A stretch of 64,000 nt of DNA, from NCBI GenBank assembly GCA_903834765.1, contig CAILKE010000016.1:2686-66685 (forward strand), read 5' to 3'. Position numbers and translations under genes: made by a program. This document shows, piece by piece, positions 7,978 through 26,557 of this stretch. This DNA comes from an uncultured Bacteroidota bacterium. GTDB lineage: Bacteria; Bacteroidota; Bacteroidia; B-17B0; Aurantibacillaceae. Position 1 is the stretch's first letter; each line of letters opens with the position of its first letter. Below the pieces are notes generated by a model, which did not search any database, had not been told where the DNA came from, and was given only the letters and a program-made list of their open reading frames with translations.

Positions 7978-9267
7978 ATGAAAAAATCAATCTTAACAAT
8001 CGCAATTACTATGATTTCAACATTATCAATGTTGTCGCAATCATGGACACAAGTTGGCTCAGGATTATCATCAACTGTAAATGGATTATACACTGATGCT
8101 AGCGCAAACAGATTATATGCTACTGGAGCATTCACTGGAAAAGTTGCTTATTTATCTGGTTCAACTTGGAGTGTAGTTCCTTCTTATACTGGAACAACTG
8201 GTAATTCAATTTTATCTTATAGCAGTACTATAATTCCAATGGGAACTATAATTGTTTGCGCTGATAAAATTTATTCCTATGAAACTGGAGCATGGTCTGC
8301 GAGAACTACTGGTAACGCTTTGAGTAAGTATACAGCTTCATGTGTTGATAGTTTAACCGATTATTTATATGTCGCTGGATTACCTATAGGAGCATCATCA
8401 TATAAAATCTTCAAATATGATTTAGCAGATTTATATGTTGTGAGTGGAACATTAACTCCTGTTGCAACTTACACAAGTCCTAATTTTCCAACTTCAACTG
8501 GCAAAATAAATGATTTAAAAATTTTAAATAATGTGTTATATATTGGCTTAGAAAATTCAGGAGCAGCTTTAATGCAATTAGATTTATCAACCTCTTCTTT
8601 AACAACTGTAGGAACGCCAACAATAGCAGTAAATGTAAAATGTTTAAGTGTTAATTCAAATCAATTATATGTAACTGGAAGTTTTAATAGTTTTAATAAT
8701 CCAACACCTTCAAATAATTTAACATCATATAATGGAACTGCTTTTCAATCTTACGGTTCTCTAATGAACTCTGCTACATTAGGTCAAAATCAAATGTATA
8801 ATGGCAAATTATATGTTGCTGGTTCTACTAATACTCTTGTTAAAGTTGTTACTGGAACAAATACAGCTTCTCCAATTGTTAGTATATATCCAATGGCAAC
8901 AACAGGTTCAATTAATACAATGGCTGTTTATAATGGTGATTTATATGCAGGTGGAACTTTTACAGTCTCAACTGGTGGCTCTTCACATTTTGATAATATA
9001 GCTAAGTATAACAGCAGTGTAACAACAACATTAAATAATATGCAGCAATCAAACAATGTAAATATTTATCCAAATCCATTTACAAATAATTTGACTATTG
9101 ATGTCGAGAATAGTTACATTTTAGATGTATTTGATTATACTGGTAGAAAAATTAGAACAATCAACTGTAATGGTAAAACTGAAATAACATTAGAAAAGTC
9201 TGGGATTTATTTTATCGAAGTTAATAATGAAAATATACACTTTATTAAAAAAGTAATTAAAGAGTAA
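7978..9267 (+). CDS. Secreted protein with T9SS C-terminal sorting domain
   Basis: Signal peptide 'MKKSILTIAITMISTLSMLSQ'. C-terminus 'NIYPNPFTNNLTIDVEN...GIYFIEVNNENIHFIKKVIKE' is typical of Por_Secre_tail CTDs. Confidence 0.8.
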   Translation: MKKSILTIAITMISTLSMLSQSWTQVGSGLSSTVNGLYTDASANRLYATGAFTGKVAYLSGSTWSVVPSYTGTTGNSILSYSSTIIPMGTIIVCADKIYSYETGAWSARTTGNALSKYTASCVDSLTDYLYVAGLPIGASSYKIFKYDLADLYVVSGTLTPVATYTSPNFPTSTGKINDLKILNNVLYIGLENSGAALMQLDLSTSSLTTVGTPTIAVNVKCLSVNSNQLYVTGSFNSFNNPTPSNNLTSYNGTAFQSYGSLMNSATLGQNQMYNGKLYVAGSTNTLVKVVTGTNTASPIVSIYPMATTGSINTMAVYNGDLYAGGTFTVSTGGSSHFDNIAKYNSSVTTTLNNMQQSNNVNIYPNPFTNNLTIDVENSYILDVFDYTGRKIRTINCNGKTEITLEKSGIYFIEVNNENIHFIKKVIKE

Positions 9268-10781: not shown

Positions 10782-11456
10782 ATGAAAATGAAAACAACAG
10801 AAGAACAACCGTTATCTCCAACGCAACAAACTTTGATCGATCACCTTGAAAAATTTGCCAATTCACCGGTAGATTTAATTGTTACAGCAACTGGATTAAA
10901 CAAATTATTAGTCACTAATTCTTTAAAAATATTATTGGAGAAAAAGAAGCTAGTTGAAGTTTCTGATACAACTCCTCCAGTATACAATTTAGTAGCTACT
11001 ACTAAAAAAATTACAAATATTGCTGAGAAAAAATCAGTCAAAACTGAAACAGATAAGACTTCACTACCAAAAACTGAAGTAGCAAAAAAGAAAGCTGATG
11101 ATGAAGTTGTTTTAAAAAAAGAAAATGGTCGTGATACTTCTAAACTGAAATTTAATGGAAATGAATACGGAAAAGGAAGATTAGTATTAGCTGTTGTAAA
11201 AAAATATATGGAAGATAATCCTAGAACAACTTTAACAAAATTGAAAGAAGTATTTCCTGACGAACTACAAAATAGATATGGAATCATACAAGAAGTTGCA
11301 AAAGCAAAAAAGTTAAGTGCTGAAATTGACCGTTTTTTCTTTAAGCCTGAAGACTTAATCAAAGTTGGAGATAAAAAAGTTGCTGTTTGTAATCAATTTG
11401 GATCACACAACCTTCCATTAAAACATTTTAAGTCTTTAGGATTTGTAATTAAATAA
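10782..11456 (+). CDS. Hypothetical Lys-rich protein (possible winged-helix N-terminus)
   Basis: 224-aa ORF followed by a clean terminator. N-terminal 'SPTQQTLIDHLEKFANSPVDLIVTATGLNKLLVTNSLKILLEKKKLV' looks wHTH-like. The central region is K/E-rich. Confidence 0.55.
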   Translation: MKMKTTEEQPLSPTQQTLIDHLEKFANSPVDLIVTATGLNKLLVTNSLKILLEKKKLVEVSDTTPPVYNLVATTKKITNIAEKKSVKTETDKTSLPKTEVAKKKADDEVVLKKENGRDTSKLKFNGNEYGKGRLVLAVVKKYMEDNPRTTLTKLKEVFPDELQNRYGIIQEVAKAKKLSAEIDRFFFKPEDLIKVGDKKVAVCNQFGSHNLPLKHFKSLGFVIK

Positions 11457-11481
11457 AAACCACGCCATGGTTTTTAACGAG

Positions 11482-11500
11482 GGGAGCAATTATTGCTCCC
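11482..11500 (+). terminator. Rho-independent terminator
   Basis: gggagcaa-tta-ttgctccc (8-bp stem) followed by tttgttgttttt, 25 nt after the stop of 10782..11456. Confidence 0.7.
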
Positions 11501-11857
11501 TTTGTTGTTTTTATCGTTTCTCATTAGGTTTATTTAGGAGGAGAATGGTTTAAAAGCCATAACAATACTCATTTTAACAAAAACTATATTCTAGGTTTAA
11601 GCAGGAGGGCTGAGGAACATGTTTTAAAGCTAAATACAATGCTAATTCTTTAAAATTTCAAATAAGTACCCAAATTGTGCTCGTTTTGTATTAGTTCGTT
11701 TAAAGCTTTTACCCTGCGAATACAGTAACATTTCAAAATAAGTAACAAATCTTACATCAATTGGTTGTTTTGCTAAAATTTGCCGTCATTTTACTTGGGA
11801 GTACCCTTAAATTTTCTCATATTTGAACATAACGGTTTCAAAAAAGAGAAGTACTAA

Positions 11858-13468
11858 ATGGCAAAAATTAAGGCAGAAATAGCAAAACCAAAAGCAGATA
11901 TTGATTTTGAAAAAGAATTGTGGAATGTAGCCAATGAGTTACGAGGAGCAGTAGCAGAAAATCAATATAAGGATTATGTGTTGTCCCTTATTTTTTTAAA
12001 ACACATGAGTGAGCGTTATGAAACGCGCCGTGACGAATTATTACATTTAGTTAGCGAACCACAGTCAGAATACTTTACTAAAAATAAAAAAGAAGCCGAA
12101 GCAATAGTAAGTGATCCTGATGAGTACATTTCTAAAAACACGTTCATTATACCACATAAAGCCACTTGGCAATATTTACAGGATAATACTGAGCAGGATG
12201 ATATTAAAGTAAAAGTAGATGACGCGTTTGAATTATTAGAAAACACAATTGCAATTTTTCGTCCTGAGTTAAAAGGCATTCTTCCAAGAATATTTGTAAA
12301 GAGTCAATTATCAAGTAAACAGTTAGGTGGGTTAATTAATTTATTTTCTAATCCTAAATTTTCAGAAAAAAACAATCCTGAAAGTGATGTCTTAGGTCGG
12401 ATATACGAATACTACATTGGACGTTTTGCTATTGCTGAAGGTAGTGGTGCAGGCCAGTTCTTTACGCCTGGTTGTATAGTACGATTGCTTGTGGAAATGT
12501 TGGAGCCACTAAAAGGAAAGATTGCAGATTTTGCTTGTGGAAGCGGCGGAATGTTTGTGCAATCTTTAAAATTTATTAATGCACATGGCGGTAATAAAAA
12601 AGATATTTCACTATATGGACAAGAACGTTATGATGGAACATTACGTTTAGCTAAAATGAATTTGGCTTTACGTGACTTAAATTTTCAATTAGAGTTAGGT
12701 GATTCTTTATTACAAGATAAATTGCCAGAGTTAAAAGCAGATTACATTATTATGAATCCGCCATTTAATGTAAGCCAATGGCACCCTGAAGATTTACCTG
12801 AAAATGACCCACGTTTATTTAAACTAAAAGATAGTAACGACCCAGTTGTAACCGATGGTAACGCAAATTACATGTGGTTTCAAACTGTATGGAGCCATTT
12901 AAGTGATAGTGGAACTGCGGGTATTGTTATGGCAAATGGTGCCATGACCTCCAATAACAAAGGAGAACGTAATGTACGTGAACACATGCTTAATGAAAGC
13001 ATGATTGATTGCATTGTACGTTTACCGGATAAATTATTTTTAACTACTGGCATACCTGCATGTTTGTTTTTTTTAAGCAAAACACGCAAAGGAAATAAAC
13101 AGCATCGTGAACGTAAAAACGATGTATTATTCATAGATGCTAGTAAACTTGGTGAAATGACTAACCGTAAATTACGTGTGCTTACTGATGGAGAAATGGA
13201 ACGTATTGCTAATGTTTACCATAATTGGAGAAATACAAAAGGTAAATATGAAGACATACAAGCCTTTTGCAAAAATGCTACTTTACAAGACATTATTAAG
13301 CAAGATTACAAATTAACACCTGGTATTTATGTTGGTAGTGAAGATGCCGAAATTGATTTAATACCATTTGAAGAAAAAATGGACACACTTAAATCTACTC
13401 TTAAACAACAATTTGCTAAGAGTATTGAGTTGCAAAAACGTATTGAAAAAAATTTAAGTCAATTATAA
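11858..13468 (+). CDS. hsdM: Type I restriction-modification methyltransferase subunit
   Basis: HsdM N-terminal region ('FEKELWNVANELRG...YKDYVLSLIFLKHMSERYE'). SAM motif 'DFACGSGGMF'. Catalytic 'NPPFN'. Confidence 0.95.
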   Translation: MAKIKAEIAKPKADIDFEKELWNVANELRGAVAENQYKDYVLSLIFLKHMSERYETRRDELLHLVSEPQSEYFTKNKKEAEAIVSDPDEYISKNTFIIPHKATWQYLQDNTEQDDIKVKVDDAFELLENTIAIFRPELKGILPRIFVKSQLSSKQLGGLINLFSNPKFSEKNNPESDVLGRIYEYYIGRFAIAEGSGAGQFFTPGCIVRLLVEMLEPLKGKIADFACGSGGMFVQSLKFINAHGGNKKDISLYGQERYDGTLRLAKMNLALRDLNFQLELGDSLLQDKLPELKADYIIMNPPFNVSQWHPEDLPENDPRLFKLKDSNDPVVTDGNANYMWFQTVWSHLSDSGTAGIVMANGAMTSNNKGERNVREHMLNESMIDCIVRLPDKLFLTTGIPACLFFLSKTRKGNKQHRERKNDVLFIDASKLGEMTNRKLRVLTDGEMERIANVYHNWRNTKGKYEDIQAFCKNATLQDIIKQDYKLTPGIYVGSEDAEIDLIPFEEKMDTLKSTLKQQFAKSIELQKRIEKNLSQL

Positions 13469-13469
13469 T

Positions 13470-15512
13470 ATGGCAAAAAGAAATCTAACTACAAACTCCA
13501 GAATACTAAATGAACATCTTACAAAATACAGAAATACATTTTTTGCATTTTGTGAGTTAATAAACAATTCCATACAAGCAGGAGCTACAAATATCTCCAT
13601 TGATATTAAGTATCCAAAAGCTAATGCAGTTGCCACTTCTCCTGTAGAAGAAATAGTTATTAAAGATGATGGGAAAGGTGTTTCTAACTCTGAGTTTGAC
13701 CAAAAAATACTTGAGATTGGAACAACTTCTAAAGATGGTGGCGAAGGGATAGGAAGATTTGGAGCATTACAAATAGGCTCTAAAATGGAAATTGAAACCG
13801 TTGCGTATGACAAAAAAATTGACCAATTCACTAAAGTAAATTTTAATTTAGATTCAAGTCTATTTAAAAACAAAGAGCTAAAAGATCTCGATTTAGAAAT
13901 ACAATCTGAGGATTTAGGAAAAAACGATAAACCAACTTCTTATCAAGTTAAAATAAAGGAGCTATATCATGCGAAACAAGACACCGTTCAACGCAAAAAT
14001 AAAATAACAGAAGATTTTTTAGAAGAAAATATAAAACTTTCAATTTTCGAAAGATATACGTTACCAATATTTAATGAAAGTATTTCTTTTACAATCAATA
14101 AGCAAAAAATAAAAAAGAAAGATTTTTTAGAAGAAGAGCCTTCTAAAAAAACATTAAGCATTAAGGATCTCAAAGGAACATTAAGGAAAGTAAACCTATA
14201 TTTCTATAATATTAAAGTTAATTTAAAAAAAGTAAAAGTATTTTTTCAGGTTGAAAATGCTGGTATAAAAACAGTAGGTCATGAATACACATATTCATCT
14301 GACTGGTATACTCCTGATTTAGGAACATGGTTTGTTTATGTAGATTCTGATTTCTTCTCGAGTGATTTATTTAGAAATGTAGACTTTGGAGTTTATGCAG
14401 ATGATGAGTTAAGGAATTTACAAATTAATGTTAGAGCTGCGATTGACGAGTTTTTTAAAAATAGAAATAAAAAATTTGAAAAATTCGTAAATACTTTAGA
14501 AAGCGATACATACTATCCATTTAAAAAAGGCGAGCCTGTTATGGATACGCAACAGAACTTGTTTAATAAAGTAGCTTTTCTAATCGAAGAAGAACATAAA
14601 TTAATTGAAGGGGACAATAAAATTAGAAATTTTATATACCCATTAATAAATAGTGCCATTAGAGAGGGGAAAATAAAAGATATTTTCGAAAAAGTACTTA
14701 ATTTAAAAGCTGACACCATTGATAAATTCCATTCATTACTTGAAAAAACAGATTTGGAAGATGTTATTTCTTTTTCAAGTCAAGTGGCAGATAGATTACA
14801 ATTTTTAGATTTTTTAGAAAACATAACTTACGGAAAAGTAGCTGAATTTTTAAAAGAGAGAAAGCAGTTACATAAGATAGTCGAAAAAAATCTTTGGGTT
14901 TTCGGTGAAAATTATAATGGCACACCAGCATTGTGGTCGGACAAAAATTTAGGTAAAATACTAACTGATTTACATCAAGAAATTGAATATACTCCATCAG
15001 AACCAGATGATAATATTGATACTGATTTAAAGATAGAGGGAATAAGTGAAATCACAGATTTAGTTTTTTATAATGAAAAAATAACCGATGATGATTGCAG
15101 AGAGATTATGGTCGTAGAGTTAAAAGCACCTAAGTGTAAAATCTCACCAAAAGAATTAAGTCAAATATTTGGTTATGGTTATAAAATAAAAGAGAACTCT
15201 CAGTTTCCTTCTGATAAAGTAAAATATAAATTACTATTAATATCATCCAAAATTAATGGTAAAGCAGATACTCAGATTAAATCTAATAATTTACGTAAGG
15301 AAAAGCCTTTTTTATATCAAAAAATAGAAGAAAAAAATATTGAAATCTATGTTATGACTTGGGCTGAATTATTAGAATTGAATAAACGAAAATTGGGCTA
15401 CTTATCAAATAAATTAAAAGTAAAAGAGAAAGATGTTTCTGAGGTTTTTGAAGAAGAGTATCCGGAAATTGTTGATGCAACATTTACTTCACGAATGAGG
15501 AAAACAGCTTAA
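13470..15512 (+). CDS. GHKL (MORC/HATPase_c_3-like) ATPase with C-terminal PD-(D/E)xK-like nuclease motif
   Basis: Bergerat-fold motifs 'ELINNSIQAGA', 'DDGKGV', 'GEGIGRFG'. C-terminal 'DLVFYNE...IMVVELKAP' (~15050..15135) fits D...ExK. Starts 1 nt after the hsdM stop; TAATG overlap with hsdS. Confidence 0.65.
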   Translation: MAKRNLTTNSRILNEHLTKYRNTFFAFCELINNSIQAGATNISIDIKYPKANAVATSPVEEIVIKDDGKGVSNSEFDQKILEIGTTSKDGGEGIGRFGALQIGSKMEIETVAYDKKIDQFTKVNFNLDSSLFKNKELKDLDLEIQSEDLGKNDKPTSYQVKIKELYHAKQDTVQRKNKITEDFLEENIKLSIFERYTLPIFNESISFTINKQKIKKKDFLEEEPSKKTLSIKDLKGTLRKVNLYFYNIKVNLKKVKVFFQVENAGIKTVGHEYTYSSDWYTPDLGTWFVYVDSDFFSSDLFRNVDFGVYADDELRNLQINVRAAIDEFFKNRNKKFEKFVNTLESDTYYPFKKGEPVMDTQQNLFNKVAFLIEEEHKLIEGDNKIRNFIYPLINSAIREGKIKDIFEKVLNLKADTIDKFHSLLEKTDLEDVISFSSQVADRLQFLDFLENITYGKVAEFLKERKQLHKIVEKNLWVFGENYNGTPALWSDKNLGKILTDLHQEIEYTPSEPDDNIDTDLKIEGISEITDLVFYNEKITDDDCREIMVVELKAPKCKISPKELSQIFGYGYKIKENSQFPSDKVKYKLLLISSKINGKADTQIKSNNLRKEKPFLYQKIEEKNIEIYVMTWAELLELNKRKLGYLSNKLKVKEKDVSEVFEEEYPEIVDATFTSRMRKTA

Positions 15513-16693
15513 TGAATAACTGGAAAAAATATAAACTTACTGATTTGGGAACGTTAGCTAGAGGCAAATCTAAAAACAGACCTAGAGATGCTGCGTTTCT
15601 TTATGGTGGACCATATCCATTTATTCAAACTGGGGATATAAAAGGTTCTAATCATAGAATCTATAGTTATACTCAAACATATTCTGAAGCGGGATTAAAG
15701 CAAAGTAAGCTTTGGCCTAAAGACACTATATGCCTTACGATTGCTGCAAATATTGGTGATACTGCTATTCTAGATTTTCCCGCTTGCTTTCCTGATAGTG
15801 TATTAGGATTTATTGCAGATAAAACAAAATGTGATGTTGAGTTTATTGAATACCTTTTGCAACATTATAAAAAGGAAATTCAATCTCATTCAATTGGCTC
15901 AGTTCAAGACAATATAAATCTTGGAACATTTGAAAATGTAGAATTTAATCTCCCCACCCTCTCCGAACAACAAACCATTGCCGAAATACTATCATCATTA
16001 GATGATAAAATAGAACTCAACTTACAAATCAATAAAACCTTAGAGGAAATGGCTAATGCTTTATACAAACATTGGTTTGTTGATTTTGGCCCTTTTCAAG
16101 ACGGTAAGTTTGTTGAGAGTGAATTAGGTTTGATACCCGAAGGTTGGGAGGTTAAAACACTAGAATATATCGCTGACTTTAAAAATGGGAAAGGAATAAA
16201 AGATGAAGACAAGCATGAAAATGGTAAATACATTGTGCTCGGTTCAAATGGTATAGTTGGCAGAACCGATAAAGTATTATTTAAAGAACCTGTAATTGCT
16301 ACAGGAAGAGTTGGTGCAAATTATGGTGCAATTCACTATTCACTTCTTCCATGTTGGATTTCAGATAATGCTATTACCTCACAACCAATCATCAAAACCA
16401 ATTTATGGTTCCTGCTTAGATTATTACAAAACATCAATTATAATAATTTTGCTGTAGGTTCAGCCCAACCACTTATAACTCAAGGTGCGATAAAGAACAT
16501 TTTATTTGCATATCCTAATCAAAACATATTAGATAACTATTATTCTAAAGTTAATAATCTATATCTAAGTATTAATGAAAATAAAATTGAATGTGAAAAT
16601 CTTAAGCAGATCCGTGATTGTCTACTACCAAAATTAATTAGTGGAGAAATAGGAGTAAAGGATCCAGCTAAAAAAGTAAAAGAAGTATTGTAG
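15512..16693 (+). CDS. hsdS: Type I R-M specificity subunit
   Basis: Two target-recognition halves separated by the conserved 'LSEQQTIAEILSSLDDKIELN' helix. C-terminal 'LKQIRDCLLPKLISGEI'. Confidence 0.9.
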   Translation: MNNWKKYKLTDLGTLARGKSKNRPRDAAFLYGGPYPFIQTGDIKGSNHRIYSYTQTYSEAGLKQSKLWPKDTICLTIAANIGDTAILDFPACFPDSVLGFIADKTKCDVEFIEYLLQHYKKEIQSHSIGSVQDNINLGTFENVEFNLPTLSEQQTIAEILSSLDDKIELNLQINKTLEEMANALYKHWFVDFGPFQDGKFVESELGLIPEGWEVKTLEYIADFKNGKGIKDEDKHENGKYIVLGSNGIVGRTDKVLFKEPVIATGRVGANYGAIHYSLLPCWISDNAITSQPIIKTNLWFLLRLLQNINYNNFAVGSAQPLITQGAIKNILFAYPNQNILDNYYSKVNNLYLSINENKIECENLKQIRDCLLPKLISGEIGVKDPAKKVKEVL

Positions 16694-19600
16694 TGAGCAT
16701 AAACAAAATAAAAGATTTTGGGTTTTACAAACTCACTGCTCCTATACAGGAACAAGCCAATTCTTTTGTGTCTTATGTAGTGTCGCCCGATGGCAAATCT
16801 TATTTTATAAAAATACCAAAGGGTTTGCAAAGTGGTTCGGCAGCTGGGCGTATGTTTTCAAACATGCTTCAAAAATTAAAATCAATTAATAACCCTTACT
16901 TAGGCAAAGTAATTGATTATGGGTTTGAGCAAGGTTATGCTTACATTATTATGGAAGACTATAGCCAATATAAACCCTTGCAATTATTGGTTTCTGATAA
17001 TGGTTACAGCCTTTCAAAAACAATGCAGCTTTGGTATAAATGTGCTGCTGCTTTGCATACACTTTCAGGTTCTAATTTATTTCATCGCGATTTGCAACCT
17101 GCTAATATTTTAGTGCATAACGATGAACTAAAATTAGTTGATATTGGTTGGGCAGAATTGGAGCATACTATTAGCCAAACCGAACAACAACTAAACTTGG
17201 CAAAAGAGTTTGCAGCTCCCGAACTTATACAGCAAAATGAGTCGTTAAACCGCCGTCATAGTGATGTTTATTCCTTAGCACAAATTGTGGTTTATTTAAT
17301 ACTAGAGCACCAATTGTTTTACGAATACAGAAACACTGATAAACGATTGGAACTTATTAAAGAAAATTTTGAAAATCGTATTAGTGTAGATGCTTTAGAA
17401 CAATTATTACATACTCTAAAAAAATGCCTCGACCTTATACCACAAAACCGCTTTGGTAATTATGTGGAATTGCAAGAAGCTATTAAAAAATTAATAGATG
17501 CTGATACACTGGCACCTTTGGATGCCAAGGTAGATTCGATCTTACCACGGTTATCGAGATCACAAGACCATGAATTTTATAAGTGGAAAACGCTTATAAC
17601 CGAAGAGATGGATTTTATAAAGGCAAATGCCTTTACAGTATCCTATAGCGAAAGAACAATAGATGCTCAAAAATCGGAAGCTATTTTTAAGTTGCAGGAT
17701 ATTGAAGACCAAAAAGTAATGGACTTTATTAATAAAACCCGTAAGGAAGATGATATTACAATCGTAATACCTGGCACTCATAAAGATAGCAGAGGTCGCG
17801 CTGCCTCTATAGGCTATACTGAAAGCTATAACAAACAAAGCAAAGAACTAAAAGTAAAAAACTTTACAGGCGATGCCGATGCTATACCTATGCGCGGCAC
17901 CCTAGCCCAGGATATTGAAAAAGAATTAATACAATATAAACGTCAGCAAGCAGCTATTACCGATTTTAAAAAAGGCGACATGGTAAATCCTGAGTTGCGC
18001 AACTACTTATTTAACGCACATCAATTGCCAGAAGCAGGTTTTATAAATTCCAATCTTCAAATTATTTCTCAAACAAAACAACATACACCTGTTCCTTTTA
18101 AAAATTCACAACTCAACGCCGTTGAAAAAAGTTTGTTTCGAGCTCCTTATGTATTAATACAAGGCCCGCCGGGCACAGGTAAAACAACAGTTATTACGGA
18201 GGTCATAAGGCAATTGGTAAAACGTAATCCTGAAGTTAAAATATTAATAACCTCTCAAACCAATTTGGCAGTAGATAACGTGCTAAAAAAAATTGCTAGC
18301 GATAAAAACATTCGCTTTATTCGTTTAGGCGCCGAAGAACGCATTTCGTTTAATGAACTAAAAAAAGAATCGTACGAAAACAAATTAAAAACCTGGGGTG
18401 ATAAATCGAGAGAAAAATCAAAGGCGCATTTTAAAGCTCATTATAAAGCAACAGAACTTAATCCCATACTAAATACGATTGTATCAACCTTTGAAGCCAA
18501 TAAACACAATTGGAAAGAAGCTAAACAAAAACTAATGCAAGTATTGTCGTTTGGCAAGCACGCTTATGTTGGCTTATCATCTCATTTAGATACGAAGGAC
18601 ACTTTTGAAAAAGCCTTAAAACCGCTTTTACCGCAACAATATCATCAATACAGTCAGTTAAAAAACATACAGGATAAATGGTTGCAAATCATATCAAACA
18701 TACATGATAAACCTGCTATTACCGAACGCTTGATGCGAAGCGTAAATGTAATTGCATCTACCTGCAACCATATCGCCGCTGGTTTATACCGCAATCATAA
18801 ATTTAATTTCGATTATATGATTATGGATGAGGCTGCAAAAGCTACTTTGCCCGAAACCTTAGTGCCGTTAAATATGGCAAAAAACGTCATCTTAATTGGC
18901 GACCATAAACAGTTACCACCGTTGGTCTTATCAACCAAAAGTGTAAAAGAAAAGGTAGTGCAAAAACTAAAAACACAACTCGACGAAGAAAATATTGATT
19001 TTGATAAAATGTATTTAGAGGAGCCTACGCTCTTTGAAACTATGTACGAAAGTGCCTCTACCGATTACAAAGAGTTGTTGGATACACAATTTCGAATGCC
19101 CATAAGTTTAGGAAACATGGTTTCAAAATTTGTTTACAACCGTGATCTAAAATCAGAAGAAGGTATGTGTGGAGCTAGCCACACTATTTCAAACTTTGGC
19201 CCACTAGTATTTATTGATACTTCAACATCACCGTTACGATTTTCAAAACAAAACAAACACTCGCATAGCAATGCATATAATGCTAAAACAATTTTTAATG
19301 TATTGCAGTACATCGATCAATTTGAGGAAGTAAAAGGTTATACCATTGGTATCATCACAGGATATTTAGCGCAGGTAAGTGAGTTAGAAAAATTATTAAG
19401 TGGCAAAACATTTAAAAACATACAAGTACCCAATGATTTTAAACGAGCCAATGATAGAGAATTAGTGATCTCTACCGTTGATAAATTTCAGGGCAGTGAA
19501 AAAGACATTATTATTTTTGATGTGGTAAAAAGTGAAGTAAATGGCAGTCTTGGTTTTTTAGCGATGCCAAACCGCATTAACGTTGCCTTTTCGCGCGCCC

Positions 19601-19755
19601 AGCGCTTAATGATTGCTGTGGGCGATACTGACTTTATAAAAAACACAAGCTCTCAAATACTGGCAAAAAAAGTATTGTTGCAGGAATTTACTGAATATAT
19701 GTTAGATAAGGCCCAAGTCATAAACGCAGAAGAAATTGAAAAACTAAAACCTTAA
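16693..19755 (+). CDS. mkoA: Ser/Thr protein kinase fused to Upf1/DNA2-like SF1 helicase (type I Mokosh MkoA-like)
   Basis: Kinase: 'YFIKIPK', 'HRDLQPANILV' (~17083), 'DIGWAE', 'APE'. Helicase: 'GPPGTGKTT' (~18165), 'MDEAAKA', 'DKFQGSEKDIIIFD', 'RINVAFSRAQ'. GTG start overlaps the hsdS stop. Confidence 0.7.
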   Translation: MSINKIKDFGFYKLTAPIQEQANSFVSYVVSPDGKSYFIKIPKGLQSGSAAGRMFSNMLQKLKSINNPYLGKVIDYGFEQGYAYIIMEDYSQYKPLQLLVSDNGYSLSKTMQLWYKCAAALHTLSGSNLFHRDLQPANILVHNDELKLVDIGWAELEHTISQTEQQLNLAKEFAAPELIQQNESLNRRHSDVYSLAQIVVYLILEHQLFYEYRNTDKRLELIKENFENRISVDALEQLLHTLKKCLDLIPQNRFGNYVELQEAIKKLIDADTLAPLDAKVDSILPRLSRSQDHEFYKWKTLITEEMDFIKANAFTVSYSERTIDAQKSEAIFKLQDIEDQKVMDFINKTRKEDDITIVIPGTHKDSRGRAASIGYTESYNKQSKELKVKNFTGDADAIPMRGTLAQDIEKELIQYKRQQAAITDFKKGDMVNPELRNYLFNAHQLPEAGFINSNLQIISQTKQHTPVPFKNSQLNAVEKSLFRAPYVLIQGPPGTGKTTVITEVIRQLVKRNPEVKILITSQTNLAVDNVLKKIASDKNIRFIRLGAEERISFNELKKESYENKLKTWGDKSREKSKAHFKAHYKATELNPILNTIVSTFEANKHNWKEAKQKLMQVLSFGKHAYVGLSSHLDTKDTFEKALKPLLPQQYHQYSQLKNIQDKWLQIISNIHDKPAITERLMRSVNVIASTCNHIAAGLYRNHKFNFDYMIMDEAAKATLPETLVPLNMAKNVILIGDHKQLPPLVLSTKSVKEKVVQKLKTQLDEENIDFDKMYLEEPTLFETMYESASTDYKELLDTQFRMPISLGNMVSKFVYNRDLKSEEGMCGASHTISNFGPLVFIDTSTSPLRFSKQNKHSHSNAYNAKTIFNVLQYIDQFEEVKGYTIGIITGYLAQVSELEKLLSGKTFKNIQVPNDFKRANDRELVISTVDKFQGSEKDIIIFDVVKSEVNGSLGFLAMPNRINVAFSRAQRLMIAVGDTDFIKNTSSQILAKKVLLQEFTEYMLDKAQVINAEEIEKLKP

Positions 19756-21131
19756 TGGCTGAAAAATTCAGACATAACCATAAAAACCAAAAGCAAAGCC
19801 AAAAAGTTTTGCCCAATAGATCTTATAATAAGGTACAATCGTCACTATACGATGACTTTGAAAAAGCATACGGCATGGATTACATGTTACAAAACGTGCT
19901 GCAAATAGCATGGCCTGTGCATAAAGTAAAATTGGATGTGATAGTAACCGCAGAGCCCGAAAATGTTTTAAAAGAAATTCATTTTACCTTGTTGCAATTG
20001 ATTAAACTAAACATCAATACCTACGAAAGCATTGCTGCCTTTTTAGGATTGGAGCCAACCGACTTTTTATTAGATGAATTGTTGGAACTTCGAAAAAATT
20101 ATTTAATTGAATATCATAACGAGGCTTTTTATATAAAGCCTATGGGTGAAGATTATTTAATGGGTAAAATAAATATACCGGTTACCGAGAAAAAAGTGTA
20201 TGCCATTTGTATTGATGGTTTTACTAATGAAGTTATAAGAGATTACGAAATCACAAGAGCAGATGAAACCTTTCAACAAATTGAAGGACAATCTATAAAA
20301 ATTGATTATACTTTTATTGAAACGCATTGGTTAAACATTAGTGCCAAATATAAAGCCAATAACAAAGGCTTTGAAATTGTTGACTTAGCTAATGGCAGGC
20401 AGAGTGTGGATTCGCACCAGTTATTTGAAAAACGATACTTGATGATTTTTAAAGGTAAGGAAGGAGCAGAAGAAGGAAAGATAAAATTAAAGCTAGTAAA
20501 TGAAAGCCGTCAAGAATTCAGCAATGCATGCCAAGTAATAGAAACGTTTATTTTTAATTCTCCTGAAAACTACCTGCAAAAGTTTGAAGGATTTGAGTAT
20601 AAAGCGTCAAGTAAAAATAATGATCCCTTAAAAGATAAATTAAATGCTATTGACGGCTATTTGCACATTAATTTCCAAGAGGTAGATGATTATTTACGTT
20701 ACGCTTTAACGCATGGTAAAACCGTGTATTTAGAAGTACCACGTATCTTAAAAAAAGCGAAATCTTTTATTGATGACATTGAACAATTTTTAAAGAAACC
20801 CGAATCAAAATTATACCTCATTTACGGCGTAAGCCATGATTATAAACATGATGAGGGTATTCTATCTAAACTAAATGAATTAAAAAGAAGTTACCGTAAC
20901 TTTGTATTAATTGATTTACCTGACCATGCTTATAATATTGGATTGGAAGTGAGTGGTGTGCACAATAGAACCATTATTAAAGACAGTGACTTTTATATTG
21001 AAACTTCATACAATTTCTTTACATTAGATGTAGAAAGAAAAGAAAAGATTTCGGCGGAAACCGCAACCATATTTAAAAGAGAAGTAGAGGAATATTTAAA
21101 TAAACAAAAAAAATTGTACGGAATAAGGTGA
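19755..21131 (+). CDS. mkoB: Single-HKD PLD-family nuclease-like protein (MkoB-like)
   Basis: C-terminal 'HNRTIIKDSDFYIETSYN' (20961..) matches Hx(K)x4Dx6(G)SxN with Arg in place of Lys. TAATG overlap with the upstream gene and 4-nt overlap with hsdR. Confidence 0.6.
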   Translation: MAEKFRHNHKNQKQSQKVLPNRSYNKVQSSLYDDFEKAYGMDYMLQNVLQIAWPVHKVKLDVIVTAEPENVLKEIHFTLLQLIKLNINTYESIAAFLGLEPTDFLLDELLELRKNYLIEYHNEAFYIKPMGEDYLMGKINIPVTEKKVYAICIDGFTNEVIRDYEITRADETFQQIEGQSIKIDYTFIETHWLNISAKYKANNKGFEIVDLANGRQSVDSHQLFEKRYLMIFKGKEGAEEGKIKLKLVNESRQEFSNACQVIETFIFNSPENYLQKFEGFEYKASSKNNDPLKDKLNAIDGYLHINFQEVDDYLRYALTHGKTVYLEVPRILKKAKSFIDDIEQFLKKPESKLYLIYGVSHDYKHDEGILSKLNELKRSYRNFVLIDLPDHAYNIGLEVSGVHNRTIIKDSDFYIETSYNFFTLDVERKEKISAETATIFKREVEEYLNKQKKLYGIR

Positions 21132-24130
21132 GCGAATTAAAAGAGTTTCATATAGAACAAGCTGCTATTGAATGGTTACAGCAGATGGGTTATGTTTATC
21201 AGCATGGCGCGGCTATTACACGTGATGCTCGTACTGTAGTATTGGAAGATGAGTTGATGCAATTTATTGCTAAAACTTATCCTAAGCTTCCTGCTGATAT
21301 GGTGAAAGAAGCAGCTAAAGAATTTATTAATAATGCAGGTGCTGATATGGACTACCGTAACCGTGATTTTCATTTAAAACTCACTAAGGGAATTGATATT
21401 AGTTGGAAAGATTCAAGTGGCAAAGAATCTGCTTTGCATGTATATCCAATTGATTTCGAAAATCCACAAAACAATACTTTTACTTGCGTTAATCAATTAG
21501 AGATTGTTGGGCGTAACCGTCGCATCCCTGATTTACTTATTTACATCAATGGGTTACCCTTAATTATCTTTGAATTCAAAAATTGGTTTGATTATAACAC
21601 GACTGAAAACGAAGCTTACAATCAAATACAACATTACAAACAAGACATACCTTTATTATTTGAGTACAACGCCTTAACTATTATTAGTGATGGCAAAACC
21701 GCTCAACATGGTATGTTCCCAGCTAGTATGGAATGGTACTCGCCATGGAAATCCATAAATGGTAAAGACATTGTTGATGCCAATGATTTTCAATTAAACA
21801 CCTTATTGCATGGCTTGTTTGTAAAAGAACGGTTAATCAACTACTTAAAATATTTTATTTTCTTTGAAGATCATAATGGTACTTTAATAAAAAAAGGCGC
21901 TAAGTATCATCAATACTTTGGAGTAAACTTTGCGGTTGAAAAAACCAAGCAAGCTATTAAACCAATTGGTGATGGACGTATTGGTGTGATATGGCACACA
22001 CAAGGTTCGGGCAAAAGTATTTCGATGGCAATATACACAGGTATGTTACGTCAGTTACCTGAATTAAAAAATCCAACCGTAATTATTCAAGTAGATAGAA
22101 ATGATTTGGATTGGCAGCTTTACGAAAACTTTGTATTATGTAAAGACATTGTTGGCTCTGTGCAACATGCAACCAGTACTGATGAATTAAGACGTTTATT
22201 AGATACCGACGCAGGTGGTGTTATTTTTACCACCATTGAAAAGTTTCGTTTAAAAAAGGATGATGGCGAAATCCAACATCCAGTTTTATCAAAACGTGAT
22301 AACATCATTGTAATCGCCGATGAAGCGCACCGTACACAATATGGTTTATTGGATGGCTATGCAGCTAATTTAAGAACCGCTTTACCTAACGCTTCTTTTA
22401 TTGGATTTACTGGTACACCAGTAGATAGTAAACAAGCCGATACAGAAGAGTTATTTGGAGAGGTAATACATACCTATGATATTAAACAAGCGGTTGAAGA
22501 TGGAGCAACAGTTCCAATATACTATGAGCCACGTTTAGCAAAATTGCATTTAGCAAACGAAAACATTGATGAAGAAGTTGATGAATTGCAAGAAGCCCAA
22601 GGCGACCAACAATCTTTAAAATGGGCTGCTATTGAAGATGCAGCAGGTTCATTGGATAGAGTTTCAAAAATAGCAGAAGACATTATATCGCATTTTAACA
22701 AACGTACAGGCACCTTAGAAGGTAAAGCCATGGTGGTTTGTATGAGCCGTAAAAATTGCGTGAAGATGTATGATGCTTTAAAACAAATTGAAGGTTGCCC
22801 CGAAATAGCAGTTATTATTACTGCAAACATTTCTAAAGACCCACCAGAGTGGAAAGACCACATTAGAACCAAAGACCAATTTGAGGCGATTAAAAAACGT
22901 TTCAAAAATCCTGACGACCCTTTAAAAATTGTAATTGTACGTGATATGTGGTTAACAGGCTTTGATGCGCCTATTATCAATACCATGTATGTAGATAAGG
23001 TTATGACAGGGCACAATCTAATGCAAGCTATTGCCAGGGCTAATCGTGTGTTCGCAGATAAACAATCAGGTGTTATTGTAGATTATATTGGTATCGGTGA
23101 TCAATTGAAAGCAGCCACTATGAAATACACTCAAGGTGGTGGACGTGGTGATACAAAGATTGACATCGAGCAAGCTTTAGAAATGTTCTACAATCAAGTA
23201 GAAAAATGTAAAGCTCATATACCAGATAATATTAATTATCAAAAATGGAAAGTCTTGACTACTGGTGATAAAATGATGTTGATTAATGAAGGAATGAGTG
23301 TCATTTTAAAGTCAGATCAGTTAGCCGAAGAATTCATGCAAGATGAAAAAAAGTTAACTGGTTTAGTAAGCATTGTTAAAAGTAGAGAGGAGTTGGCAGA
23401 GTTTGCTTTAGATGTAATTTACATTCAGCATGTGTCAGCAGCGGTGCGTAAAGCAAAATCAATAGTAGTCGGTAAAAAAGACAATCAAAAGAAAGTACGT
23501 GATTTAATTTCACAAAGTATAGAATCGGAGGACATCATTGATGTATTTGCCATGGCTGGTATTGCTCGTCCTGATGTATCTATATTAAATGAAGAATTTT
23601 TATTAGGCGCTAAAAAAGATAAATCGGGATTAGCTTTAAAAATTGAGTTAATGCGTAACATTTTAAAGGGTGAAATAGCTTTACGTTTAAGAAAAAACAT
23701 AAAAAAATATACTTCCTTAAAAGAAGAAATAGAAAAAGTAATTGACCTCTATCATAAAAACGCTATTGATTCTTATACTACTATCCTTGAATTAGTAGAA
23801 CGTGCTAAGGACATGCAGGAAGAAGAAAAACGCCAAAAGGAATTAGGAATCACCGATGAAGAGTTGGCTTTTTACGACATCATCAATGCTAAAAAAGAAA
23901 TCATACAAGAAGCTGGACCAATACAAAACATAGTTCATGCAGTTTGCAAAGCAGTAAAAGATAATTTAGAAATTGACTGGACGAAGAAAGAAGATGCAAA
24001 AGCAAATATTCGTTTAGCTGTTAAACGAGAACTTAGAGGAAAAGTAAGTTTAGAAGAACTCAACATCATACTACAAGAAATTATGGAACAAACAGAAGGT
24101 CAATTTAAAGATTGGCCTATTGTTGGATAA
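21128..24130 (+). CDS. hsdR: Type I restriction enzyme R subunit
   Basis: N-terminal nuclease region ('PDLLIYINGLPLIIFEFK'). Helicase motifs 'TQGSGKS' and 'DEAHRTQ'. Length and domain order are typical of HsdR. Confidence 0.95.
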   Translation: MSELKEFHIEQAAIEWLQQMGYVYQHGAAITRDARTVVLEDELMQFIAKTYPKLPADMVKEAAKEFINNAGADMDYRNRDFHLKLTKGIDISWKDSSGKESALHVYPIDFENPQNNTFTCVNQLEIVGRNRRIPDLLIYINGLPLIIFEFKNWFDYNTTENEAYNQIQHYKQDIPLLFEYNALTIISDGKTAQHGMFPASMEWYSPWKSINGKDIVDANDFQLNTLLHGLFVKERLINYLKYFIFFEDHNGTLIKKGAKYHQYFGVNFAVEKTKQAIKPIGDGRIGVIWHTQGSGKSISMAIYTGMLRQLPELKNPTVIIQVDRNDLDWQLYENFVLCKDIVGSVQHATSTDELRRLLDTDAGGVIFTTIEKFRLKKDDGEIQHPVLSKRDNIIVIADEAHRTQYGLLDGYAANLRTALPNASFIGFTGTPVDSKQADTEELFGEVIHTYDIKQAVEDGATVPIYYEPRLAKLHLANENIDEEVDELQEAQGDQQSLKWAAIEDAAGSLDRVSKIAEDIISHFNKRTGTLEGKAMVVCMSRKNCVKMYDALKQIEGCPEIAVIITANISKDPPEWKDHIRTKDQFEAIKKRFKNPDDPLKIVIVRDMWLTGFDAPIINTMYVDKVMTGHNLMQAIARANRVFADKQSGVIVDYIGIGDQLKAATMKYTQGGGRGDTKIDIEQALEMFYNQVEKCKAHIPDNINYQKWKVLTTGDKMMLINEGMSVILKSDQLAEEFMQDEKKLTGLVSIVKSREELAEFALDVIYIQHVSAAVRKAKSIVVGKKDNQKKVRDLISQSIESEDIIDVFAMAGIARPDVSILNEEFLLGAKKDKSGLALKIELMRNILKGEIALRLRKNIKKYTSLKEEIEKVIDLYHKNAIDSYTTILELVERAKDMQEEEKRQKELGITDEELAFYDIINAKKEIIQEAGPIQNIVHAVCKAVKDNLEIDWTKKEDAKANIRLAVKRELRGKVSLEELNIILQEIMEQTEGQFKDWPIVG

Positions 24131-24142
24131 AAAATATAAATT

Positions 24143-24742
24143 ATGGCAGATTGTATTAAATGTGGCGCTTACACAAAATTTAATGGTGGCTTATGTTTAA
24201 GTTGCTACAAAAAAGATACTAAAGAAGATGTTTTAGTTGAAGAGCCAAGTGGTTTAAAAGACAAAGAATGGACTTATCATTATAATATGATTAAAGGTCG
24301 TATTGCTGAAACTTTAATCCAAGAATTGTTTTTAAGTCTTAAATTTAACGTATTCCGCTATGGTATGGAAAATACTATTCCTGGTATTATGGAGTTATTA
24401 AAAGGAGTAAGAACAGATGTAGCAAAGGATATTAAAAACATGCCTGATTTTGTTGTTCAAGACCCACGAAGTAATTCAGTATATTTTGTTGAAGTAAAAT
24501 TTAGAGCAGCGGAAACATTTAAAATTTCTGATTTACCAAAAGAGTATCCTTATACAAATGCTTATATTATTGTTGTTTCCAAAAAACACATCAAATGCAT
24601 TACTGTTGAGGAATTAAAAAACGGTAAAGAAATTACACCAACTTGTAAAAACTATCTTGGTAGTCGAAAAGAATTTGATTTAGATAAGGAAGTAATTATC
24701 GATTTCTGTGATTTTGCAGTAAAGTTTTTTGAGAACGTGTAA
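24143..24742 (+). CDS. Zinc-ribbon + PD-(D/E)xK nuclease-fold protein
   Basis: 'CIKCG...CLSCY' zinc ribbon. 'PDFVVQD' ... 'VYFVEVKFR' fits the D...ExK restriction-endonuclease fold. Starts 12 nt after the hsdR stop. Confidence 0.5.
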   Translation: MADCIKCGAYTKFNGGLCLSCYKKDTKEDVLVEEPSGLKDKEWTYHYNMIKGRIAETLIQELFLSLKFNVFRYGMENTIPGIMELLKGVRTDVAKDIKNMPDFVVQDPRSNSVYFVEVKFRAAETFKISDLPKEYPYTNAYIIVVSKKHIKCITVEELKNGKEITPTCKNYLGSRKEFDLDKEVIIDFCDFAVKFFENV

Positions 24743-24843: not shown

Positions 24844-25416
24844 ATGGATGCTTCAACATATAAGGAATCAATTGATCTATATAAAAACAAATTATTAAAC
24901 CATCTTAATTCAGTAAGTTTAATAAGTCCACCTAATTTTAATTCATTTCCAATTGATTGTAGGCAGATTGACAGTTTTAAAGAAAAAAAATATAAAGCAT
25001 TAGTTGAAAAAGGTGTTTTAGATGGAGATACACCATACATTTATTACTTTAAGTTGGCTTCAAAATGTGATAAGAAAGCGCTAATAAATGAAATACAGAT
25101 ATTTAAAAGTAGTGAAGATAATAGTAAGGCTTTAAAATTACCTTTGGTTCATGGTCACTTTGATAGCGATATACTTTATGTTGGTAAATCTCAAGGTGAT
25201 TTTTTAACCAGGACTAAAGTTCATTTTGGATTTACTGGCGACAAAACTTATGGCTTACATTTAAAGAAGTGGTTTGACATTATAGGAATAAGTCCAGATC
25301 TTACACTTCAATTTTATTATGCTCCAATAGAGGTAAAAGATGAAAATTTAGTTGAATTAATTGAAAGTTCCTTACACCTTAAATTAAAACCTATATTAGG
25401 ACGTTCAGGCCACTAA
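24844..25416 (+). CDS. GIY-YIG-like nuclease-domain protein (divergent)
   Basis: 'YIYYF' ... 'ILYVGKSQGDFLTRTKVH' ... 'ELIESSLH' resemble GIY / YIG-R-H / E elements. The GIY-to-YIG spacing (~45 aa) is longer than canonical. Confidence 0.45.
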   Translation: MDASTYKESIDLYKNKLLNHLNSVSLISPPNFNSFPIDCRQIDSFKEKKYKALVEKGVLDGDTPYIYYFKLASKCDKKALINEIQIFKSSEDNSKALKLPLVHGHFDSDILYVGKSQGDFLTRTKVHFGFTGDKTYGLHLKKWFDIIGISPDLTLQFYYAPIEVKDENLVELIESSLHLKLKPILGRSGH

Positions 25417-25419
25417 AAA

Positions 25420-26556
25420 ATGTATTTTCTTACACAACAAGACCCAAACTATACCATTAAAGGCTCCCGTGACCCATTAGGGTTTCAGGTGTTGTGGCAA
25501 GCTGCTGGCCGTAAACTAATACCTCATTTATCTACAGTATCAGGAAGTATTATTGATTTTCAAATAATATCATTAGCCTTTTACATAAAAAAAGAATTTA
25601 ATATTAGTGATGAAGAATTTAATTCGTTCTTCATTAAATTAGAACAACTAATGGCTTATTCAAGATTTAAGTTAAATGAAGAGACAGGTTTTAATGGTAT
25701 CGATAAAGTAAGAAAAACATTACAATCAGGAAGTTCTACCGTTAAAATCTCAAATGCAGAACAAATACTGTCTAACCAACGTGCTTATGGTATTTGGGGT
25801 AAATACAATAGACCATTTACTGATATGCAGTTAAAGGAGAATGAAGAATTTGATAAAATTTATAAATCAAAAATTGAAAACAACTCAGAATTCTTAAACC
25901 AAATAAAAGTATTAATTAAAAAAGGAGATACTGATACTGCCTCCGTTAGTATAGAAAAACTTTCTCATTTTACAAGCTTAATTAATAAACCTACTGATAA
26001 AGAAAAAGAACTATTTATCAATAAAATTCTACAAGATAATTGTGATGACGAGTTGCTTAAAATATTTTCTAGCAATCCAGAATTAATTAAATTGGGTGGT
26101 TACGAATTGTTTGAAAAAATTAGTTCAAATTCTAATAATCAAAAATTAAAGGCGGAAATTAAGCATATTGTAAATACAGAGAAAGTATTAAGCCCTTTAA
26201 ATAGAATATTCAGGCTTTTACAAACACAGTCATTTTGGTCAAAAGAGCAAATTGATAATAATGAAAACATTTCAAAATGGAGAACTAATGTTGATTCATC
26301 AGTTTTGGATTCAACAACGAAAGAACTTTCAATATTATTGCAAAAATCAAATTGGGAATTAGTATCAGGACTTGTTAAGCGTAACGAAGAAGTATCAAAT
26401 TTAAGGAATTCAGCGGCTTGGGTTCGCTTTGCAGCAAACGGCATAGAAGTTAATCATTTTGAAGGTGCTGGTGAGTGGGAATACAACCCCGAATCTGAAA
26501 TGGATAATAATTACTTTTTATATACCTATGTTTCTTTATTTGAACAGTTAAATTAA
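25420..26556 (+). CDS. Hypothetical protein, first tightly coupled partner of the PLD/SNF2 pair
   Basis: 378-aa ORF starting 3 nt after the previous stop. N-terminal 'GSRDPLGFQVLWQAAGRKLIPHLS' looks conserved, but I cannot assign a family. Confidence 0.6.
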   Translation: MYFLTQQDPNYTIKGSRDPLGFQVLWQAAGRKLIPHLSTVSGSIIDFQIISLAFYIKKEFNISDEEFNSFFIKLEQLMAYSRFKLNEETGFNGIDKVRKTLQSGSSTVKISNAEQILSNQRAYGIWGKYNRPFTDMQLKENEEFDKIYKSKIENNSEFLNQIKVLIKKGDTDTASVSIEKLSHFTSLINKPTDKEKELFINKILQDNCDDELLKIFSSNPELIKLGGYELFEKISSNSNNQKLKAEIKHIVNTEKVLSPLNRIFRLLQTQSFWSKEQIDNNENISKWRTNVDSSVLDSTTKELSILLQKSNWELVSGLVKRNEEVSNLRNSAAWVRFAANGIEVNHFEGAGEWEYNPESEMDNNYFLYTYVSLFEQLN

Positions 26557-26557
26557 A

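Follow-up and report, generated by a model that had tools for sequence, protein, structure and literature searches.

The window analysed here, a stretch of 64,000 nucleotides from an uncultured Bacteroidota bacterium (contig CAILKE010000016.1), carries between positions 11858 and 24130 six open reading frames (ORFs) arranged head to tail on the plus strand, in which the three genes of a type I restriction-modification (R-M) system, hsdM, hsdS and hsdR, are separated by genes that do not belong to it; a seventh ORF follows at 24143-24742. The favoured reading, which is considered probable, is that an intact type I R-M operon works as a scaffold with variable slots for self-contained anti-phage modules: in the window, a Shedu-like GHKL ATPase/nuclease (gene 2) between hsdM and hsdS, and a Mokosh-like pair (gene 4, mkoA-like, and gene 5, mkoB-like) between hsdS and hsdR. 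Among the related loci, at least seven kinds of cargo occupy the first slot, and the second slot is either empty or filled with a Mokosh cassette.

The layout, taken from the ORF list and from direct reading of the junctions, is as follows.

11475-11507, plus strand: terminator-like hairpin immediately downstream of the ORF 10782-11456; the stem of 15 bp includes 6 G-C pairs, and the tail is T-rich
11858-13468, plus strand: hsdM; stop codon TAA, one nucleotide, then ATG at 13470
13470-15512, plus strand: gene 2, GHKL ATPase/nuclease; TAATG junction with hsdS, 1-nucleotide overlap at 15512
15512-16693, plus strand: hsdS; TAGTG junction with gene 4, 1-nucleotide overlap at 16693
16693-19755, plus strand: gene 4, mkoA-like; TAATG junction with gene 5, 1-nucleotide overlap at 19755
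19755-21131, plus strand: gene 5, mkoB-like; GTGA, 4-nucleotide overlap with hsdR at 21128-21131
21128-24130, plus strand: hsdR; 12-nucleotide gap to the seventh gene
24143-24742, plus strand: seventh gene; about 100 nucleotides before the next gene

All the junction coordinates claimed in the original prediction, an earlier reading of this DNA, were reproduced. Its gene labels and gene order agree with the domain assignments, with the caveat that gene 5 is phospholipase D (PLD)-like only by the PADLOC MkoB model, by its homologues and by a variant motif, a Pfam PLD match being absent. Domain and PADLOC assignments also uphold the notion of two distinct inserted modules, neither of them part of the R-M system. 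The operon had been announced as one of seven genes with six of them named; the six stand, and the seventh is the 199-residue ORF that lies 12 nucleotides past hsdR.

Variable slots in a conserved scaffold

The tight coupling of the genes had been taken to imply obligate co-expression and possibly functional cross-talk, and a survey of homologous hsd loci for the same inserts had been proposed. An obligate functional unit is not borne out: the inserts are absent or variable among relatives, and other cargo is packed just as closely. The relatives of HsdR sampled come from six loci (L050-L055, HsdR 89-97% identical to that of the window), and in each of the six hsdR follows hsdS directly or with an overlap, the Mokosh pair not being there. 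The contents of the slots in these and other related loci are the following.

L050 and L051, hsdM/hsdS slot: KAP_NTPase
L052 and L053, hsdM/hsdS slot: GmrSD_N and a small ORF
L054, hsdM/hsdS slot: nSTAND3
L055, hsdM/hsdS slot: AAA_13 (PrrC/RloC type) and GmrSD_N-HNH
L019, L021 and L022, hsdM/hsdS slot: a 182-residue protein without assignment
L017: ahead of hsdS, two further proteins; after mkoB and before hsdR, a zeta-toxin-like pair

Both inserts are optional, interchangeable cargo in a conserved scaffold, and a dependence of the R-M system on its cargo is not supported. In the R-M loci with different cargo, the gaps between genes range from -4 to +52 nucleotides and are mostly of 20 nucleotides or less. 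Because all the cargo of the sister loci is equally tightly packed, the overlaps are a property of the scaffold and denote no special bond between particular genes; tight junctions as proof of an obligate unit were rejected on the same ground. Overlapping gene pairs also occur elsewhere on the same island (3486/3486, 5628/5628 and 28549/28542).

The pair found in L017 (8207-9260) consists of an ORF of 84 residues and a zeta-toxin-like P-loop protein of 279 residues, and its presence between mkoB and hsdR means that the hsdS|hsdR slot can take more than the Mokosh pair. Several slot proteins, of 182, 252 and 332 residues (L019:4810-5358, L022:4699-5247, L052:4885-5643 and L017:1391-2389), have no Pfam or PADLOC match. 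As known defence genes fill this hsdM|hsdS position in other loci, these proteins are candidates for undescribed defence genes.

Every locus with a close relative of MkoB has the order hsdS-mkoA-mkoB-(...)-hsdR, in five independent contexts at 45-85% identity and with the overlapping junctions kept. These five loci represent one R-M lineage, their HsdM being 84-86% and their HsdR 87-89% identical to those of the window. When the proteins of L019 and L022 are compared, identity is 100% for HsdM, 93% for the protein in the first slot, 97% for HsdR and 97% for the product of the downstream gene, against 39% for HsdS, 51% for MkoA and 47% for MkoB, and the breaks in identity coincide with gene boundaries. 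A comparison of the nucleotide sequences of the same two loci, made with a sliding window of 200 nucleotides, gives the following values.

hsdM and the gene in the first slot, as far as hsdS: 87-100% (mostly 92-100%)
hsdS, the two target-recognition domains: 38-47%
hsdS, conserved parts: 88-90%
mkoA and mkoB: 40-74%
hsdR: mostly 84-98%

Judged by these alignments, mkoAB behaves like hsdS, that is, as a fast-diverging or recombining cassette between conserved arms. The pattern fits homologous recombination in the hsd genes together with selection for diversity; alone among the observations, it also leaves room for a closer functional tie.

Distant Mokosh pairs (MkoA about 32% and MkoB 23-31% identical) keep the two-gene unit and either stand alone next to serine recombinases or lie beside AIPR, type III R-M or an OLD/ABC-type ATPase. 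One of them is found inside an unrelated type I R-M locus, in the other slot (hsdM-mkoA-mkoB'-hsdS-hsdR; L032:3616-15904), and the R-M proteins of this locus are only 25-28% identical to the HsdM and HsdR of the window, a case of independent embedding. The mkoB of L032 is truncated (272 residues), and the gap of 690 nucleotides that follows it contains no PLD remnant. The only other Mokosh-like pair in 24 genomes of the window's genus (L034, on G003:C76) is decayed, with mkoA broken by an in-frame TGA and mkoB frameshifted near its C-terminus, and it has a serine recombinase alongside.

The R-M scaffold and its transcription signals

HsdM has 536 residues and is recognised by Pfam N6_Mtase (1.1e-90) and HsdM_N (4.8e-23) and by PADLOC MTase_I (1e-133); it contains motif I (DFACGSG) at residue 224 and the catalytic NPPF at residue 300, and it is 84-86% identical to the HsdM of the sister loci. 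HsdS, of 393 residues, has two target-recognition domains, with Pfam Methylase_S (2.1e-42) in two stretches and PADLOC Specificity_I (6e-99) over residues 1-385. Its identity to the HsdS of the sister loci is just 36-39%, and the central and C-terminal conserved regions are retained. In HsdR, of 1000 residues, the N-terminal PD-(D/E)xK nuclease, the superfamily 2 (SF2) DEAH motor and the C-terminal assembly domain are all present, as shown by Pfam (HSDR_N 1.9e-35, SWI2_SNF2 9e-78, T1R_D3-like and T1RH-like_C 1.6e-73), by TIGR00348 (3.5e-178; 594 bits for a cut-off of 284) and by the motifs themselves (PD at 134 with E149-F-K, GSGKS at 293 and DEAH at 398). With every domain and motif in place, hsdM, hsdS and hsdR are predicted to form an intact type I R-M system.

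Homologues of HsdR at 85-97% identity are numerous, and those at 80% or more run to thousands. Some versions are longer, of about 1205-1225 residues (P0136, P0149, P0150, P0157, P0163, P0166, P0167 and P0170), are 80-95% identical over the shared part and carry additional DUF559 / MTES_1575 (Vsr-like endonuclease) domains, so that an extra nuclease domain has apparently been inserted into HsdR or fused to it. Another one, P0148, is a "HsdR" of 1130 residues, 96% identical to that of the window, that also contains PF13087 (AAA_12, the C-terminal helicase domain of the MkoA type); here the remnant of a helicase may have been joined to hsdR, or the gene may have been mis-called at a place where mkoB was lost.

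The strong hairpin at 11475-11507 would close the transcription unit upstream of the operon, and an intergenic spacer of about 350 nucleotides separates it from hsdM. Within the operon the plus strand has two weak hairpins only, and the count for the whole region (8, for 7.2 expected) is that of chance. The Bacteroidota-type promoter TTTG/TAnnTTTG has no plus-strand match inside the operon, and the scan for this pattern found 5 occurrences for 5.25 expected, again at the level of chance; the same is true of the sigma-70 scan (66 found, 68.6 expected), whose consensus is unsuited to Bacteroidota. Given the strong terminator upstream and the lack of a notable internal terminator or promoter in these scans, the sequence is consistent with one transcription unit, and co-transcription of the operon is plausible. 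The ORF that precedes the hairpin (10782-11456, 224 residues) gives a weak match to the PADLOC candidate PDC-S57 (7.1e-8).

At the other end, the seventh gene encodes a zinc ribbon (CxxC...CxxC) and a PD-(D/E)xK-like motif (PDF...EVK), and its product has no match in Pfam, PADLOC or NCBIfam. The position after hsdR is occupied by a DUF4379+DUF559 protein of 602 residues in L019 and L022, by a DUF4268 protein in L017 and by other, unannotated ORFs in L050-L055; this place is probably a third variable slot, filled in the window by the seventh gene. Directly downstream, at 24844-31613, the window contains a second tightly packed cluster, made up of an ORF of 190 residues, a protein of 378 residues that matches PADLOC PDC-M27A (3.3e-16), a PLDc_2 protein of 663 residues (9.9e-10) and an ORF of 1023 residues.

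The G+C content of hsdM is 0.335, that of mkoA 0.352 and that of hsdR 0.349. Gene 2, at 0.281, has the lowest value in the operon, which fits a separate origin for that cargo.

The embedded modules

The protein encoded by gene 2, which fills the hsdM|hsdS slot, has 680 residues: a GHKL ATPase is followed by a transducer-like middle domain and a helical region, and a PD-(D/E)xK nuclease forms the C-terminus. Pfam assigns it HATPase_c_3 (5.6e-17) and, weakly, HSDR_N_2 (8.7e-4); the GHKL motifs I-III are found at residues 29, 66 and 90, and D530 and E550-x-K552 are present in the C-terminal domain and invariant among close homologues. Its AlphaFold2 (AF2) model (pLDDT 72) matches TRAP1/Hsp90, MORC2/4, MLH1/MutL and GyrB in Foldseek (E 1e-10 to 1e-7) over approximately 380-450 columns that span the ATPase and the middle domain, and a sequence search of solved structures returned marginal MutL/PMS2 N-terminal matches only. 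The Foldseek list being filled by N-terminal GHKL matches, the nuclease domain was compared by hhalign instead: against 12 genuine SduA_C domains, the C-terminal profile of gene 2 gives a probability of 35% when its alignment is shallow. When the alignment is deep the probability rises to 88.8% (E 2.5e-6), and the motifs D, ExK and Q line up; the control against the N-terminal domain of HsdR gives 0.4%.

The family of gene 2 comprises at least 1011 clusters at 50% identity (E <= 1e-3), nearly all of them of about 650-690 residues and with the same architecture, and the databases label it "ATP-binding protein" only. HATPase_c_3 is found in 48 of 48 diverse members sampled from the family, 17 of the 48 weakly match HSDR_N_2 and one weakly matches SduA_C (0.0013). 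Neither gene 2 nor anything else in its genome reaches Pfam SduA_C (PF14082), no PADLOC Shedu model matches gene 2, and six accessions of its relatives do not occur in the accessible part of the list of homologues that supplements the VcSduA paper. Taken together, its architecture and profiles indicate that gene 2 is Shedu-like, with the layout of the GHKL-fused Shedu (type 1D, VcSduA); given that the Pfam SduA_C threshold is missed, "Shedu-like" is used here without strict membership being established. The assignment of gene 2 to Tiamat, or to MzaB, was considered and rejected, the MzaB match being marginal (PADLOC 2.4e-5; NCBIfam 21.7 bits for a cut-off of 850) and the only PADLOC match.

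According to Gu et al. 2023, type 1D Shedu proteins have HATPase_c_3 and a Hsp90/MORC-like middle domain before the Shedu nuclease, and the Shedu genes embedded in other systems number 602 for R-M and 87 for BREX. VcSduA, of the WASA lineage of Vibrio cholerae, is an active GHKL-Shedu (PMC12137116). Gene 2 shares with them the single-gene format, the order of GHKL, Hsp90/MORC-like middle and PD-(D/E)xK domains, and the R-M and BREX settings, and it differs in that its nuclease fails Pfam SduA_C/DUF4263 and in that a helical region of about 170 residues parts the ATPase module from the nuclease. No relative of the window's hsdM or hsdS flanks the homologues of gene 2 at 52-54% identity: one lies in a BREX system, with brxC on one side and pglX on the other (L001), another in an island with CBASS-like genes and hsdR (L003), and further ones stand alone, with intergenic DNA on both sides. 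The BREX locus (L001:6457-19520) also has a stand-alone Ser/Thr kinase of 451 residues between pglX and pglZ, so that a GHKL-nuclease and a kinase co-occur again in a second methylation-based system.

The product of gene 4 (1020 residues) joins an N-terminal Ser/Thr kinase to a C-terminal Upf1/IGHMBP2-like helicase of superfamily 1 (SF1), according to Pfam (Pkinase 5.6e-22 over residues 33-255, AAA_11 4.2e-48 and AAA_12 3.3e-39), TIGR00376 (IGHMBP2 family, 4e-65) and PADLOC MkoA (PDLC03920, 8.3e-150). The MkoA model, of 1112 positions, matches the sister and distant homologues from end to end, kinase included. The motifs of the kinase (HRDLQPAN at 131, DIG at 150 and APE at 175) and those of the helicase (Walker A GPPGTGKT at 491 and DEAA at 712) are in place.

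In the product of gene 5 (458 residues), a winged-helix region at the N-terminus precedes a C-terminal PLD-family domain whose motif is a variant one. PADLOC MkoB covers residues 47-431 (3.5e-13), and no Pfam model matches, PLDc included. The motif H403-N-R405-TII-K409-D410-x6-T-S-Y-N420, invariant in seven homologues at 44-100% identity, departs from the canonical PLD signature HxK(x)4D(x)6G(S/T)xN by the changes K to R and G to T. The distant homologues (E 1e-47 to 1e-51 with the family profile) carry the canonical HRKLVIKD-x6-GSFN, score 5e-24 to 1e-25 with PADLOC MkoB, give weak PLDc_2 matches and align to the PLD region of type II MkoC, and it is on these grounds that gene 5 is assigned a PLD ancestry. 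Structural comparison adds little. The AF2 model, built on an alignment of seven sequences, is poor (pLDDT 66 overall and 27-47 over the PLD-like C-terminus), and with it a Foldseek search of the PDB reports just a winged helix-turn-helix of some 68 residues (E about 0.13), which is uninformative on the PLD domain; searching solved structures by sequence returned nothing for gene 5, either alone or as a profile of 13 sequences.

In type I Mokosh one gene encodes both the helicase and the Ser/Thr kinase domain, and another encodes the PLD nuclease; this system defends when cloned on its own, and in other members of the family anti-phage activity depends on the ATP site of the helicase and on the PLD site (10.1101/2022.05.11.491447). 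Since the MkoA and MkoB models match and the published definition fits, genes 4 and 5 are identified as a type I Mokosh pair. The pair has in common with that system the two-gene unit with an overlapping junction, in which a kinase fused to a COG1112/Upf1-like SF1 helicase is followed by a PLD-family protein. The differences are its embedding between hsdS and hsdR, the length of MkoA (1020 residues instead of about 1110-1165 in relatives) and the motif of MkoB (HxR...D...TSxN instead of HxK...D...GSxN), which reaches no PLD model of Pfam.

A probable layered defence and its alternatives

On the favoured reading, that of a scaffold with self-contained cargo, the operon sits on an integrative, mobile island of a Bacteroidota genome. 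A host of this phylum is supported by a protein of 429 residues encoded upstream of the operon (7978-9267), which has the C-terminal sorting domain of the type IX secretion system (Por_Secre_tail, 4.2e-10). All the genes would probably be read from one promoter upstream of hsdM and would provide three or four layers of defence, and with one promoter a single transfer would bring in layered defence, switched on together. The R-M enzyme would cut unmethylated DNA. In gene 2, by analogy with the work on VcSduA and Shedu, the ATPase and a clamp-like middle domain would gate the C-terminal DNA nuclease. MkoA would sense phage RNA or replication intermediates, as the work on the Mokosh family (Millman et al.) suggests, and MkoB would be the PLD-family effector, with Arg replacing the Lys of the catalytic motif. 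The small zinc-ribbon nuclease after hsdR may add a further layer. The cassettes would be swapped by recombination in the conserved hsd arms and would bring their stop/start junctions along, which would explain the "translationally coupled" look of every cargo.

There is precedent for this kind of arrangement, genes embedded in type I R-M loci having long been known (prrC, the rlo genes and TgvAB); the TgvAB paper cites a survey of embedded genes by Payne and colleagues. TgvAB is a two-gene defence module within an active type I R-M cluster that acts independently of its R-M system, and independent action is likewise predicted for the inserts of the window. It differs from them in being composed of DUF262/GmrSD type IV restriction proteins, and in being one embedded module where the window has two.

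Some observations weigh against the scaffold reading. The sample of HsdR relatives is small, with six loci, and the promoter scans covered sigma-70 and a single Bacteroidota consensus. The label "Shedu-like" is founded on architecture and on an 89% profile-profile match. The HxR form of MkoB may work differently from its HxK stand-alone relatives or be catalytically weak. Finally, the close MkoB lineage stays at hsdS|hsdR in five of five loci across 45-85% divergence, and this constant position could mean a functional tie to the R-M system and not just inheritance.

This last point leads to the first alternative, in which the Mokosh pair would act as a guardian of the R-M system. In the type IC locus EcoprrI, the embedded prrC is silenced by the R-M enzyme and becomes active when Stp of phage T4 inhibits that enzyme, so that PrrC is a proven case of cross-talk between an embedded gene and its R-M host. 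Similarly, contact with the R-M complex would keep the Mokosh pair inactive until a phage anti-restriction protein frees it as a back-up, possibly by abortive infection. Cross-talk of this type is possible by analogy, and the EcoprrI locus and the Rlo genes of Campylobacter hsd loci resemble the window in having co-oriented non-R-M defence genes between hsd genes. PrrC itself is an ABC-ATPase anticodon nuclease unrelated to the inserts of the window, none of whose operon proteins has an AAA_13 or PrrC-like match in Pfam, PADLOC or NCBIfam; among the sister loci, L055 has a gene of that type between hsdM and hsdS. The restriction of the close MkoB lineage to hsdS|hsdR, with its overlaps retained in the five loci, and the active-site variant HxR private to that lineage speak for a guardian. 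The opposite is suggested by the activity of type I Mokosh in E. coli, where it works alone as a two-gene system, by the distant pairs, mostly outside R-M loci, and by the common ancestry of the five loci, whose HsdR proteins share 87-89% identity with that of the window and represent one R-M lineage, because of which the shared position can be simply inherited. The guardian is regarded as unlikely.

A bolder version of this idea, speculative and held with little confidence, is that the HxR MkoAB is a Mokosh variant specialised for type I R-M and functionally wired to HsdMSR. The complex would hold MkoAB in check and release it once a phage disables restriction; the trigger could instead be the DNA ends generated by HsdR, or R-M stalling. 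If this were true, the pair would join PrrC as an "R-M guardian" with a second type of mechanism, and for the first time a helicase/PLD pair like that of the piRNA pathway would be linked to DNA restriction; its rapid allelic turnover beside the variable hsdS would reflect an arms race with anti-restriction or anti-Mokosh proteins of phages.

A further proposal is that the cargo is partly inert, MkoB being a catalytically dead PLD protein and the Mokosh module a decaying or regulatory remnant. The replacement of the motif Lys by Arg is the standard inactivating change in mammalian PLD1/2, and in the HKD signature of MkoB it is accompanied by the change of Gly to Thr; the HxR lineage has lost the matches to Pfam PLDc_2 and to the PLD region of MkoC that its canonical relatives still give, and two other copies (L032 and L034) are visibly degraded. 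Against this, H403, R405, K409, D410, the S/T position and N420 do not vary among seven proteins whose identity falls as low as 44%, every sister locus has full-length ORFs, and the kinase and helicase motifs of MkoA are intact, all of which points to purifying selection on a working site and makes the proposal improbable.

The least probable alternative, with hardly any weight, is a composite machine like MADS, in which HsdM and HsdS would mark self and non-self for all the nucleases and gene 2 and MkoAB would be accessory subunits: the MADS precedent (an HsdM-like methylase, an HsdS-like subunit, a protein kinase and nucleases, an ATPase-nuclease among them, combined in an operon of which most genes are needed for defence), the weak matches of window proteins to mad2, mad5 and mad6 and the proposal that prokaryotic MORC/paraMORC GHKL proteins act in R-M-like systems (Iyer, Abhiman & Aravind 2008, PMC2292703) are outweighed by the lack of any match to the mandatory markers MAD7 and MAD8 among the window proteins, by a mad6 match that reflects generic kinase similarity (PADLOC 87 bits; NCBIfam 67.8 for a 460-bit cut-off), by closest R-M relatives that have no mkoAB and unrelated cargo instead of gene 2, and by relatives of gene 2 that lie in BREX or alone. 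Membership of MADS itself, which the mad2, mad5 and mad6 matches had raised, was rejected, given that MADS has no HsdR and needs MAD6, MAD7 and MAD8, whereas the window has a complete HsdR and no MAD7 or MAD8 match. Gene 2 does resemble the MORC/paraMORC ATPases in its GHKL and middle domains, in its association with R-M genes and in its closest folds, MORC2 and MORC4 among them; the partners described for those proteins are SF2 helicases and mostly cytosine methylases, while gene 2 has a nuclease of its own and is also found alone (PMC2292703 for the comparison).

The stacking of defence genes inside type I R-M loci is already known, and no new principle is involved here. What is new is the combination of modules and the evidence that one family of hsd scaffolds cycles many cargos through defined slots, together with the allelic mkoAB cassette and the HxR lineage of MkoB. 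Nesting defence genes in the operons of R-M and BREX systems is a route to layered immunity that is recognised but has seldom been quantified, and this family of loci, with its near-constant hsdM/hsdR scaffold and varied cargo, is a clean natural experiment on that route. It also offers a Mokosh effector whose PLD motif has naturally changed from K to R, a hunting ground for new defence genes, such as those of the unannotated slot proteins, and a test bed on which modules that act independently can be told apart from those that guard the R-M system in which they are embedded.

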